Below are positions 19,511 to 26,968 of a stretch of DNA of 32,000 nt, piece by piece. A model generated the notes under the pieces. The model saw nothing but the letters and a program-made list of their open reading frames with translations, did not search any database and was not told the DNA's origin. The number at the start of each line of letters is the position of its first letter. Position 1 is the first letter of the stretch. The stretch is from Isorropodon fossajaponicum endosymbiont JTNG4 (GTDB lineage Bacteria; Pseudomonadota; Gammaproteobacteria; PS1; Pseudothioglobaceae): positions 510,001 to 542,000 of the forward strand of contig NZ_AP013043.1 of NCBI RefSeq assembly GCF_016592615.1. Reading direction: 5' to 3'. The position numbers and the translations under genes were made by a program.

Positions 19511-20173
19511 ATGGAAAGATTACAAAAGAAAATTAATTACCAATTTAAAGATTTGTCTTTGTTAAAACTTGCCTTAACACATCGTTCCATGGGTAAAAAC
19601 AATAATGAACGTTTAGAATTTTTAGGTGATAGTATTTTGGGTGTGGTAATCTCAAAAGAGCTTTATCAGCGTTTTTCTCATATTGACGAAGGCAAATTGT
19701 CCCGATTAAGGTCATACTTAGTTAGGGGACAAACCTTGGCGCAGTTGGGCGCTGCATTAGAACTATCAAACAGTTTGATTCTAGGCTCTGGCGAGTTGAA
19801 AAGTGGTGGTTACAGGCGAGAATCTATCCAGGCAGATGCTGTTGAGGCAATATTTGGTGCAGTGTTATTGGATTCTAATTTTGAAACCACAAGTACGGTT
19901 ATTTTGGGTCTTTTTGAGATGTTATTAAACAATATCAGCCCAGACGATGATTCACTAAAAGACCCAAAGACACAATTACAAGAATACTTACAAAAGCGTG
20001 GTAACGTTTTACCAAAATATGAACTCATTGATACAACAGGCAAGGATCATAATGCAATATTTACAATAAATTGTCTTTTAAAAGACCAAAGCTTGCAAGT
20101 TAGCCAATCTGCCAAAAGCATTAAAAAAGCAGAACAATCTTGTGCACAAGCCTTATTAAAAAAACTAAAATAA
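19511..20173 (+). CDS. rnc: Ribonuclease III
   Basis: RNase III signature NERLEFLGDSILG and a C-terminal dsRBD. Confidence 0.92.
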   Translation: MERLQKKINYQFKDLSLLKLALTHRSMGKNNNERLEFLGDSILGVVISKELYQRFSHIDEGKLSRLRSYLVRGQTLAQLGAALELSNSLILGSGELKSGGYRRESIQADAVEAIFGAVLLDSNFETTSTVILGLFEMLLNNISPDDDSLKDPKTQLQEYLQKRGNVLPKYELIDTTGKDHNAIFTINCLLKDQSLQVSQSAKSIKKAEQSCAQALLKKLK

Positions 20174-23829: not shown

Positions 23830-24528
23830 TTATTTTTGGTAAAAACATAGGTAATTTACACTTACATCATTCTCAAATTTATAGGTTTTTGTAAAGGGGT
23901 TATAGGTCATACCAATCATGCCTTTTAGGGTTAAACCTGAGTGCCTTGCCCATTCATCCATTTCACTAGGTTGAATGAACCTGCCCCAATCGTGCGTGCC
24001 TTGGGGTAGGAGTTTGAGGATGTATTCTGCACCGATGATGGTGAATAAATAGGATTTAGTATTGCGGTTGATGGTTGAAAAGAAGGCTTGTCCACTAGGT
24101 TTGACTAATTTGCTACAAGCTTTGATAATTGAGCTAGGGTCGGGCACGTGTTCTAACATTTCTAAACAGGTTACAATGTCAAACTTTTCGGGGTGTTGCT
24201 CGGCAAATTCTTCCACAGGGATTTTTTGATAGTTCACTTCCAAGCCTGACTCAAGCAAGTGCAATTTGGCAACTTCTAAGCCCGCTTCTGCCATGTCAAT
24301 GCCTGTCACAATCGCGCCTTCTAAAGCAAGGGATTCTGCTAAGATGCCACCACCACAGCCAACATCAAGGATTTTTTTATCCTTGAGTGAGCCACTACAT
24401 TTCTCTTTGATATAATTTAGCCTGAGTGGGTTAATATCATGCAAGGGTTTAAATTCAGAATTTTTATCCCACCAACGCGATGCTAGGGCAGCGAATTTAT
24501 CAACCTCGTTAAAATCTACGTTGCTCAT
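23830..24528 (-). CDS. ubiG: Ubiquinone biosynthesis O-methyltransferase
   Basis: VDKFAALASRWWD...FKPLHDINPLRLNYI and SAM motif ILDVGCGGGILAE. Confidence 0.9.
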   Translation of the reverse strand: MSNVDFNEVDKFAALASRWWDKNSEFKPLHDINPLRLNYIKEKCSGSLKDKKILDVGCGGGILAESLALEGAIVTGIDMAEAGLEVAKLHLLESGLEVNYQKIPVEEFAEQHPEKFDIVTCLEMLEHVPDPSSIIKACSKLVKPSGQAFFSTINRNTKSYLFTIIGAEYILKLLPQGTHDWGRFIQPSEMDEWARHSGLTLKGMIGMTYNPFTKTYKFENDVSVNYLCFYQK

Positions 24529-24974
24529 AGTGCTTGGACAGTTGTTAAAACTTCTTTAGCATGACCTTTGACTTTAACCTTATCCCAATGTTTAAGGATA
24601 TTGCCATCAGCATCAATTAAGAAAGTAGAACGGACGATACCCATATATTCACGCCCCATAAATTTTTTCAACTGCCAAACGTTAAACAATTCGCACAATT
24701 TGCCATCAACATCAGCAATCAGTTCAAAAGGGAAATTTTGCTTGGCTTTAAATTTCTCATGCTTGGTTAAATCATCTTTTGAAACACCATAAATCACTGT
24801 ATTGGCATCTGTAAAGGCTTGATGTTTATCTTTAAAATCTTGCCCTTCGGTGGTACACCCTGGAGTGGCGTCTTTGGGGTAAAAATACAACACGATGTTA
24901 CGTCCTTGAGTATCGGGAATGCTTATTTCTAAATCGCTTGTAGCGGTGCAGGTAATTGGTTGAACTTTATTCAT
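24525..24974 (-). CDS. bcp: Thiol peroxidase Bcp (peroxiredoxin Q type)
   Basis: VLYFYPKDATPGCTTEG active-site motif, 149 aa. Confidence 0.88.
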   Translation of the reverse strand: MNKVQPITCTATSDLEISIPDTQGRNIVLYFYPKDATPGCTTEGQDFKDKHQAFTDANTVIYGVSKDDLTKHEKFKAKQNFPFELIADVDGKLCELFNVWQLKKFMGREYMGIVRSTFLIDADGNILKHWDKVKVKGHAKEVLTTVQAL

Positions 24975-25017
24975 GACTGTATAATAATATGCTTAAAAAA
25001 ATCTATTTTATCATATG

Positions 25018-25180
25018 AGAGACCTTTGCATAAATATGAACAATCATCAAAACACCATCTTTCATCAACTTGGGAATTTTTTAAAAATACCCTTAGCTCT
25101 GCTAGGTGTAGATTTAAAAAATTCCCAAGTTGATGAAAGATGGTGTTTTGTTAATCATCCCTATTTATGCAAAGGTCTCT
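25018..25180. repeat. 163-bp near-perfect inverted repeat / long hairpin (MITE-like), ending at the base before the lepA ATG
   Basis: Outer arms 25018-25036 / 25162-25180 (19 bp perfect). Inner arms 25048-25085 / 25113-25150 (38 bp perfect). There are 11-nt mismatched bubbles and a 27-nt apex with its own mini-stem. Confidence 0.9.
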
Positions 25181-26968
25181 ATGAAAAACATTCGTAATTT
25201 TTCAATTATTGCTCATATTGACCACGGTAAATCAACCATTGCTGATCGCTTTATTCAGTTTTGCGGTGGTTTGAGTGATCGGGAAATGTCAGCGCAAGTA
25301 CTGGATTCTATGGACATTGAAAAAGAGCGTGGTATTACCATTAAATCTCAAAGTGTTACGCTTGATTATCAGGCTAAAAATGGTGAAACTTATCAGCTGA
25401 ATTTTATTGACACACCGGGTCATGTGGATTTTTCTTATGAAGTATCTCGCTCGCTTTCTGCTTGCGAGGGCGCATTACTTATTGTTGATGCATCGCAAGG
25501 GGTTGAGGCGCAAACGGTTGCAAATTGCTATACGGCACTAGACCAAGGCTTGGAAGTAGTGCCTGTACTTAATAAAATTGACTTACCAGCAGCAGACCCT
25601 GAGCGTGTGGTGGATGAAATTGAAGATGTGATTGGCGTTGAGGCGCATGATGCGGTTCATGCCAGTGCTAAATCAGGCATTGGCATTGAGGATATTTTAG
25701 AACAAATTGTAGAAAAAATCCCTGCCCCCAAGGGTAATATTGACGCGCCTATTAAAGCTTTAATCATTGATTCTTGGTTTGATAATTACCTAGGTGTGGT
25801 GTCTTTAATTCGTGTGATTGATGGCGAAATTAGAGCTAAAACAAAAATTAAGATTTTCTCAAATGGTGAAGAATATTTGGTAGATGGGGTGGGTGTGTTC
25901 ACACCTAAGCGCAAAAAAACAGACAGTTTAAAAGCAGGAGAAGTTGGATTTTTAATTGCCAGTATTAAAAATATTGATGGTGCGCCAGTGGGAGATACCA
26001 TTACAGGTGCTAAAAATTCTGCATCAGAACCTTTAGAAGGTTTTAAACCAGTACAACCTCGTGTATTTGCAGGTATTTTCCCTATTTCTGGTGAAGATTA
26101 CGAGAAGTTTCGCGATGCCTTGGCAAAACTTCGCCTAAATGATGCGGCGTTACAATACGAGCCTGAAAATTCAGATGCACTAGGTTTTGGCTTTCGCATT
26201 GGGTTTTTAGGTTTATTGCACATGGAAATTGTTCAAGAGCGCTTGGAACGTGAATATGATCTTGATTTAATTACCACTGCACCGACTGTCATTTATGAAA
26301 TTCTTGATACTAGAGGTACTATTCACAGGGTAGATAACCCCTCAAAAATGCCAGCCAATCAAAGCATTGCTGAATTTAGAGAGCCAATTATTACCGCAAA
26401 TATCTTGGTGACTGATGAATACGTAGGTGCGGTCATTAGTTTGTGTGTTGAAAAACGTGGCGTGCAAAAAAACATCACTTATATGGGTAGGCAAGTGTCC
26501 CTTCTTTATGAATTGCCACTCAATGAGGTTGTGCTTGATTTTTTTGACCGATTAAAATCTGTATCACGTGGCTTTGCCTCCATGGATTATCATTTTGAGC
26601 GCTATCAAGAATCTGATTTAATTCGCCTAGATATCATAATAAACCAAGAGCCAGTAGATGCGCTAGCGCTTATTATTCACCGAGACGGTTCTGTGCGCAA
26701 AGGGCGCGAGTTGGCCGAAAAGATGAAGGAGCTTATTCCACGGCAAATGTTTGATGTTACCATTCAAGCTTGTATTGGTTCTAAAATTATTTCACGCTCA
26801 AATGTAAAAGCCCTCAGAAAAAATGTGACTGCTAAATGCTATGGTGGCGACGTTTCTCGTAAACGAAAACTACTTGATAAACAAAAGAAAGGCAAAAAAC
26901 GTATGCGCAGTGTGGGCAGGGTAGACATTCCTCAGGAAGCTTTTTTAGCAGTGTTACATATTGATTGA
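25181..26968 (+). CDS. lepA: Translation elongation factor 4 (LepA)
   Basis: [23 protein letters not shown]..., [12 protein letters not shown], and the LepA-specific C-terminus. The ATG at 25181 matches the canonical N-terminus. Confidence 0.93.

Follow-up and report, generated by a model that had tools for sequence, protein, structure and literature searches.

The lepA gene of the Isorropodon fossajaponicum endosymbiont JTNG4, which encodes EF4, lies within a 32,000-nucleotide stretch of DNA that is referred to here, in its entirety, as the window (positions 510001-542000 of the complete 1.448-Mb genome, which has 37% G+C). Between lepA and its divergent neighbor, a gene for a bcp-type peroxiredoxin, there is a spacer of 206 bp, as the initial annotation had stated, and both neighboring genes are supported by Pfam matches. 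The spacer carries a long hairpin that ends at the lepA start codon (Table 1). This hairpin is a copy of a previously undescribed family of MITEs (miniature inverted-repeat transposable elements) of SUP05/Ruthia-type sulfur-oxidizing symbionts, and it was inserted into the start codon of lepA itself. Taking this account as a whole, together with a single ancestral insertion and a perfection of the hairpin arms that followed insertion, we estimate its probability at roughly 0.85.

A repeat search delimited two arms of 80 nt each (25018-25097 and 25101-25180), 88% complementary to one another, the right arm ending directly before the lepA ATG (25181-25183). When folded as RNA, positions 25010-25190 yielded a minimum free energy (MFE) of -97.3 kcal/mol, as compared to -28.7 +/- 3.8 kcal/mol in 200 shuffled sequences (z = -18), none of which matched it. 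The initial annotation had described a near-perfect 163-bp hairpin reaching the lepA ATG, with 19-bp outer arms, 11-nt bubbles, 38-bp inner arms, and a 27-nt apex with a mini-stem, and each of these parts was recovered by the repeat search and the fold. In the predicted structure, the lepA AUG and the following A (25181-25184) pair with UCAU at 25011-25014, while a second, upstream AUG (25015-25017) forms a 3-nt bulge. A palindrome, CATATG, is present in the left flank (25010-25017), so the helix is predicted to be extendable by four pairs that would sequester the lepA AUG.

Table 1. Features of the lepA region (window coordinates) and related loci elsewhere in the JTNG4 genome (genome coordinates).
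Feature	Position	Strand	Remarks
Window coordinates
bcp-type peroxiredoxin (AhpC/TSA), divergent neighbor	24525-24974	-	Pfam
Native sigma-70-like promoter candidate, TTGAAC-17-AATAAT	24960-24988	+	Overlapping TATAAT at 24980-24985; upstream of the insertion; conserved in empty-site relatives
Left target-site duplication copy, TATGA	25014-25018	+	Includes duplicated ATG 25015-25017; from flanking repeats and empty sites
Upstream open reading frame, 60 codons	25015-25197	+	From the duplicated ATG to TAA 25195-25197; +1 frame; no Pfam family
MITE core, 161 bp, GAGACCTTTGCATAAAT ... ATTTATGCAAAGGTCTC	25019-25179		73 of 103 complete copies from other genomes exactly 161 bp
Left terminal inverted repeat, 17 nt	25019-25035	+	Identical to right inverted repeat of the 1,266-bp insertion sequence of genome G004
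Outer stem, 19 bp	25018-25036 / 25162-25180		RNA fold
Symmetric bubbles, 11 nt	25037-25047 / 25151-25161		RNA fold
Left inner arm of 38-bp perfect helix	25048-25085	+	Derived state, unseen in other family members
Apex with mini-stem, 27 nt	25086-25112	+	Family orientation in JTNG4; inverted in the G011 orthologue
Right inner arm of 38-bp perfect helix	25113-25150	+	Holds in-frame ATG 25133 and a weak promoter-like motif, TTGATG-17-AATCAT
Right terminal inverted repeat	25163-25179	-	Source of AAAGG, 6 nt upstream of the lepA ATG
Right target-site duplication copy, TATGA	25180-25184	+	Includes working lepA start codon 25181-25183; LepA N-terminus begins here
lepA (EF4), 595 aa, intact	25181-26968	+	Pfam GTP_EFTU 9e-55, LepA_C 2e-48
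Genome coordinates
Second complete family copy	741885-742029		145 bp; central deletion and 28-nt insertion in left arm
Degraded family copy	1148980-1149139		Family profile
Family fragment	1323166-1323224		Family profile
IS5-family wrecks	82126-82439, 236789-237098, 388227-388767, 634883-635423, 910295-910604		Left- and right-type IS ends
Further IS5-family ends	622184, 1166551, 1243937, 1323140

The family, its target site, and its putative parent

A profile built from 95 family members matched the element at genome positions 535019-535179 (25019-25179 of the window) with E = 1.8e-45, and a search of the whole JTNG4 genome with such a profile returned four loci: two complete copies, one degraded copy, and one fragment. 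The second complete copy overlaps the stop codon of fbpB and is flanked by TAAAAC on both sides, a 6-bp repeat instead of one of 5 bp. Among relatives, family matches numbered 41 in G004, 37 in G007, 28 in G016 (which belongs to a different genus), and 12 in G011; no match was obtained in the 1.0-Mb members of the genus. The element is thus present in multiple copies both in its own genome and in relatives. A scan for the exact 21-nt terminus, limited to one genome per species, found at least 120 stretches. Among the terminus matches listed, all were from SUP05/Thioglobaceae except for a few metagenome-assembled genomes (MAGs) labelled only as Gammaproteobacteria, Piscirickettsiaceae, or Bacteroidales, and the groups represented include Bathymodiolus thiotrophic symbionts, Ca. 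Thiodubiliella, Ca. Ruthturnera, and a free-living SUP05 MAG. A literature search, incomplete in its coverage, yielded no description of MITEs in Ruthia, SUP05, or Bathymodiolus symbionts, and the family may already be published.

The ends of the element and the length of its target-site duplication were judged from 38 flanked copies of six relatives, and then from 103 further copies at loci found in the terminus scan. Perfect 5-bp flanking repeats surround 20 of the 38 copies (shuffled pairing of flanks gave a mean of 1.3 and a maximum of 6) and 67 of the 103, and duplications of any other length were seen in at most five copies. About 140 copies, from several genomes, have GAGACCTTTGCATAAAT at each end. 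The target is AT-rich (W-W-W-N-W) and has no strict consensus; the start (uAUGa) and stop (UAA) codons of an AT-rich genome suit such a target. The element itself encodes no transposase, its sole open reading frame (ORF), of 60 aa, belonging to no Pfam family. A 163-bp element with a 3-bp duplication of ATG, as the initial annotation had supposed, fits nearly as well. We rejected this model, as copies whose outer bases are not complementary (T...A, T...G) still form perfect 5-bp repeats; for instance, ...aatgT/GAGACC...GGTCTC/Aatgt is a perfect 5-bp repeat. Hence, an insertion at the original start codon did take place, but the duplication is of 5 bp (TATGA) instead of 3 and the core is 161 bp.

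In ten congeners (G001-G010), the bcp-lepA site is empty: the spacer is about 43 bp long, and the junction reads ...cttaaaaaaatctattttatca(c/t)ATGAAAAACATTCG, that is, the two flanks with a single TATGA or CATGA. As compared with these ten, the filled junction, ...ttttatcatATG/AGAGACC...GGTCTCT/ATGAAAAAC, is found only in JTNG4 and G011. The comparison of spacers between sister genomes thus revealed a presence/absence polymorphism with a precise empty site. The target, TATGA, is the lepA ATG with one base on each side; through its duplication, one ATG stayed behind in the former leader context and another was rebuilt ahead of the lepA coding sequence. Of the genomes compared, G011 shows the greatest similarity (92% across the region), and for lepA the synonymous divergence (dS) between it and JTNG4 is 0.31, against at least 0.40 for the other genomes. 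We are fairly confident that the element was inserted once, in the common ancestor of the two.

A start codon has been hit elsewhere in the same manner. In G016, an independent, imperfect copy (locus L068; L223, G016:C1:1132900-1135800, element at 2008-2170) lies on the start codon of a gene for a frmB-like S-formylglutathione hydrolase, 12 nt after the stop codon of a frmA-like (class-III alcohol-dehydrogenase-like) gene; the duplication is again TATGA, and the frame is open from the duplicated ATG.

The source of the transposition activity is suggested by an insertion sequence (IS) of 1,266 bp, present in about 30 intact copies in G004, whose left and right inverted repeats (IRL and IRR) are GAGACCTTTGCGTAATTC and GAGACCTTTGCATAAATC. 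Its ends read GAGACCTTTGC(G/A)TAA.., and a 5-bp duplication flanks 7 of 15 copies. It carries an open frame of 353 aa (340 aa from the first ATG), and the G004 transposase scored 244.7 bits against the NCBIfam IS5 model NF033581 (cut-off 140, E = 1.2e-72); the nearest annotated transposases, at about 52% identity, are labelled 'IS5-like element ISAba23 family'. The MITE and this IS share only a 17-nt tip, which is usual for MITEs other than simple deletion derivatives. A 5-bp duplication is atypical for the main IS5 subgroups of ISfinder, which have duplications of 2-4 or 8-9 bp. Judged by its matching ends and the same length of duplication, the 1,266-bp element appears to be the parent of the MITE. 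Copy number, duplications of fixed length, ten empty congeners, and an IS with the same ends all bear out the suggestion, made in the initial annotation, that the hairpin is a non-autonomous transposable element.

In JTNG4, repeat ends of two other kinds likewise start with the 12-nt tip AGAGACCTTTGC, and one of these, AGAGACCTTTGCGTAATTC..., encodes the C-terminus of a DDE transposase on the reverse strand (Pfam DDE_Tnp_1 and DDE_Tnp_1_6). Every IS5-family copy in this genome is interrupted by a different, abundant IS of 1.3 kb, at a distance of 71, 310, or 524 nt from the IRL, and no transposase frame longer than 127 aa survives. As its putative parent survives there only as wrecks, the MITE would now be an immobile fossil in JTNG4. 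An IS5 transposase was not detected in G011, G016, G015, G002, or G009, although the same kind of query matched JTNG4, G004, and G007, suggesting that MITE copies in those five genomes are at present orphans.

The 1.3-kb IS (ends CTGCAAT..TTGGACACA) has about 38 full-length and about 22 partial copies in JTNG4 at more than 99% identity, one example being 237100-238400. We considered it as a parent and rejected it, its ends being unrelated to those of the MITE. A recent preprint labels it IS3-family, and its census of IS in the clade lists IS3 and IS5, with IS5 in one genome and no MITEs (bioRxiv 10.64898/2026.10.22.761039). IS5 wrecks and MITE copies occur here in several genomes, as opposed to the one genome of that census; decayed IS5 copies may have been overlooked by annotation of the ISEScan type.

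G016 contains many near-identical copies (28 matches, of which 12 complete copies, L062-L073, were retrieved) with 5-bp duplications intact and no detectable IS5-type transposase. Either these copies are the product of a recent burst driven by a transposase that has disappeared in the meantime, or a source other than the chromosome provided the enzyme. In addition, a 171-kb viral contig (IMGVR_UViG_3300023174_000053; L225, locus 293-389) bears a left terminus and, 97 bp apart, a right terminus with three mismatches, which may be a shorter, phage-borne relative of the MITE. As to viral contigs as carriers of the MITE, the search was uninformative, the only matches being four isolated single ends.

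Possible routes to lepA expression

LepA is 595 aa long in every genome, and between JTNG4 and G011 its dN/dS is 0.039. An intact gene under such strong purifying selection must be functional, and hence expressed, and it has long been so with the hairpin at its start codon. In the empty-site relatives, a TATAAT precedes the lepA ATG by about 30 nt, and the leader contains no Shine-Dalgarno sequence. The initial annotation had proposed that the hairpin buries the lepA ribosome-binding site. This proposal is weakened, as the uninterrupted leader of the relatives has no Shine-Dalgarno sequence and the AAAGG thought to be buried comes from the end of the element, and so is not the native binding site of lepA.

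The 60-codon upstream ORF (uORF) starts at the duplicated ATG, spans the element from end to end, and terminates 14 nt beyond the A of the lepA ATG; neither in JTNG4 nor in G011 is the frame interrupted, despite an inversion of the apical loop in the latter (discussed later). Its dismissal as an artifact of the repeat holds only in part: it is not a conserved gene (it has no family, and the frame is open in the family consensus), but it does begin at a duplicated start codon in the original initiation context of lepA. In the 161-bp consensus, one of the six frames, that read from the last base of the left duplication, is free of stops, while the other five have two to eight; the chance of this is about 0.1.

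These features suggest how lepA might be expressed. Transcription from the native promoter would pass through the element, giving a leader of about 186 nt. The duplicated AUG keeps the full original upstream context of lepA, and ribosomes could load there before the right arm is made; in translating the 60 codons they would keep the hairpin melted, and would terminate 14 nt past the lepA ATG. Translation of lepA could then follow, either by termination-reinitiation or because its start site is exposed. A uORF stop beside a downstream start is the classical geometry for termination-reinitiation in bacterial translational coupling. We offer this combination of read-through and coupling tentatively, giving it appreciably less than even odds.

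As the main alternative, though one that we think unlikely, the element may carry an outward promoter in its right arm (TTGATG-17-AATCAT, at about 25130-25158), from which a one-armed mRNA would be made that forms no hairpin and in which AAAGG would serve as a new Shine-Dalgarno sequence. Outward promoters are frequent in MITEs, for example in the Correia elements (CREE) (PMC2649163) and in MITEAba12 (PMC6382973). Further, the native leader has no Shine-Dalgarno sequence and the element provides one; homogenization of the arms has turned the TTTAAT of the family into TTGATG, a better -35 hexamer; and both hexamers are identical in JTNG4 and G011. Such conservation is, however, expected anyway at 93% identity, and the motif matches the consensus at only 8 of 12 positions, which is below the threshold of the promoter scan; at that threshold the scan returned the native upstream site and none inside the element. 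An in-frame ATG at 25133, which would add 16 residues to LepA, lies within the perfect stem.

Origin and possible function of the perfected helix

We compared the arms of the lepA element with those of the family, using the 96 copies of exactly 161 bp, which include the lepA copies of JTNG4 and G011. The 94 other copies form 22-29 of the 38 inner pairs, and their longest perfect run, of 18-20 bp, is that of the terminal inverted repeat (TIR). The median RNA MFE of the 96 is -43.9; the two lepA copies rank first and second, at -93.5 (JTNG4) and -92.0 (G011). A near-perfect hairpin was accordingly rejected as a trait of the family, only the lepA copies having the 38-bp perfect run.

The two lepA copies have in common conversions by which their arms became identical: core positions 35, 37, and 45 took on the left-arm state and position 59 the right-arm state. 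The 2-nt mismatch that the family shows at 40-41/121-122 was resolved in opposite directions, both arms being of the left type in JTNG4 and of the right type in G011, and the apical loop of G011 is reverse-complemented relative to the family orientation, as in no other of the 96 copies. Both of the G011 changes would result from one inverted-copy event that began at left position 40 or earlier, crossed the loop, and entered the right arm. The stems of the two copies differ further by a double change in the TIR, from G:C to A:T, and by the change of one A-U pair to G-U; none of the seven stem differences breaks a pair. Template switching at quasi-palindromes is known to produce multi-base changes that restore pairing, and it can invert the loop (PMC8794818; PMC5453318). 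Judging from the end states only, we are fairly confident that the 38-bp helix postdates the insertion and is the product of quasi-palindrome correction, either through template switching during replication or through exchange between arms, which proceeded stepwise and independently in the two lineages.

A perfected helix is not confined to lepA. The G011 copy L060 (L224, G011:C1:1343900-1347100, element at 1504-1664), which is in contact with the stop codon of an lptA-like gene and sits 148 nt upstream of sat, has two ends of the right-end type, which form a 34-bp perfect outer helix covering the region that forms the bubble in other copies. As this locus is unrelated, perfection is not specific to lepA, which favors a mutational origin. 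The degree of conservation points the same way: with the loop un-flipped, the JTNG4 and G011 elements are 0.93 identical, equal to the 0.92-0.93 of neighboring intergenic DNA (third codon positions, 0.82-0.87), so that the idea of an element more conserved than neutral DNA is unsupported. As for the route of homogenization, mismatch repair of a cruciform is unlikely, since MutS domain V (PF00488) was not detected in the complete genomes of JTNG4, G011, G004, and G016, while control genomes were matched. All four of these genomes contain recA.

The helix might instead be kept perfect by selection. The element would then be an exapted regulatory leader controlling EF4 synthesis through RNase III cleavage or translation-dependent opening; in the form of a domesticated MITE, selection would keep both helix and uORF, and EF4 synthesis would need ribosomes that melt the hairpin, cleavage by RNase III, or both. 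We regard either form as improbable. The restriction of the 38-bp helix to the two lepA copies would be accounted for, as would the separate repair of the same mismatch to full pairing in two lineages and the lack of any pair-breaking difference, the change of A16 to G still allowing a G-U pair on lepA-sense RNA. RNase III is encoded in the window (at about 19556-19906), and lepA is strongly constrained; cutting of a 38-bp perfect RNA helix by this enzyme would be expected by analogy with Correia hairpins (PMC2649163). Against this stand the 34-bp helix at L060, the ability of template switching to give perfect pairing without selection (PMC8794818), and the identity no higher than that of intergenic DNA. 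Further, the ten congeners have an unstructured leader of about 25 nt, and no Rfam family was found.

Several observations weigh against our account, or parts of it. The TIR variant of the lepA copy of G011 (A:T at core position 10/152) recurs in a second G011 copy, which could reflect either exchange between copies or an independent insertion. Two independent insertions at the same TATGA hot spot, one each in JTNG4 and G011, would explain this variant and would accord with the AT-rich target preference and with the recurrence of TATGA at the frmB-like start codon of G016. We nonetheless consider them very improbable, because the two copies have the same orientation and have in common arm conversions at four positions that are absent from the 94 other copies, because no partner transposase is detectable in G011 and only wrecks are found in JTNG4, and because the two genomes are mutually closest at lepA by dS. 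The uORF raises difficulties of its own. Its frame is open in the family consensus; of 30 copies, 9 lack any stop, and in most of the rest there is a single stop, derived from the flanking T. As the family consensus itself is open in this frame, the uORF at lepA is not evidence of selection, and we rejected it as a lepA-specific feature. In addition, the 19-bp stem of the full-length leader takes up the 19 nt that directly follow the uORF ATG, which would be predicted to hinder initiation unless translation is co-transcriptional. Mobilization of the MITE by an IS5 transposase, finally, is a suggestion drawn from the shared ends.

A small RNA gene or an intrinsic terminator, unconnected with transposition, is so improbable that it can be set aside despite the great stability of this intergenic hairpin, as the initial annotation's small RNA gene gained no support: there is neither a terminator-like site on either strand of 24850-25300 nor a U-tract after the stem on either strand, no internal promoter reached threshold, the matches to Rfam 15 were all sub-threshold and to generic hairpins (the best, to a plant miRNA-precursor model, scored 59.7 bits against a threshold of 200), and the TIR, duplication, empty sites, and putative parent IS account fully for the sequence.

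Significance and relation to known systems

These results add a well-defined MITE family, with its putative parent IS, to what is known of a clade in which the erosion and re-expansion of genomes are under study and which comprises vesicomyid, thyasirid, and bathymodiolin symbionts as well as free-living SUP05. They also illustrate a clean route by which a gene hit at its start codon survives, in that the duplication rebuilds the ATG, with an independent second case in G016. Further, the lepA hairpins provide what appears to be a natural, dated case of quasi-palindrome perfection, stepwise and in opposite directions in two sister lineages and accompanied by loop inversion; such a pair is useful for telling whether compensatory changes in hairpins originate by mutation or by selection. 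Were the leader domesticated after all, it would constitute a transposon-built sensor of translation capacity for a ribosome-rescue and biogenesis factor. The current understanding of MITEs is unchanged.

The perfection of the arms resembles the events described in template-switch studies, in which pairing is restored in one step, either arm can be copied, and the loop can be inverted (PMC8794818; PMC5453318). Their subjects were genes for rRNA and other RNAs as well as the human genome, whereas the sequence altered in the present case is a MITE within a bacterial 5' leader. With the IS5 family, the putative parent has in common one DDE transposase frame, terminal repeats that are short and imperfect and start with GAG, and AT-rich targets.

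The functionally closest systems are MITEAba12 and also the Correia elements, and the lepA MITE belongs to neither. Like the lepA MITE, MITEAba12 of Acinetobacter and other Moraxellaceae is non-autonomous, shares only its TIR with a co-resident IS of the IS5 family, and prefers AT-rich targets; about 40-65% of its copies have intact duplications, and some fuse with the first codons of a neighboring gene (PMC6382973). It differs in being 113 bp long, with a 9-bp duplication, ends of the GGCTTTGTTGCA type, and ISAba12 as its parent, as compared to 161 bp, 5 bp, GAGACCTTTGC, and a 1,266-bp IS for the lepA MITE, and we saw no sequence relationship between the two. The CREE of Neisseria are likewise MITEs of about 100-160 bp located in the 5' regions of genes, where they are co-transcribed and form long hairpins; these can be cleaved by RNase III, and CREE can create promoters (PMC2649163). 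They have a TA duplication and their own 26-bp Correia repeat (PMC2649163), whereas the lepA MITE has a variable, AT-rich duplication of 5 bp and its own ends, and it is by these features that we set it apart from CREE.

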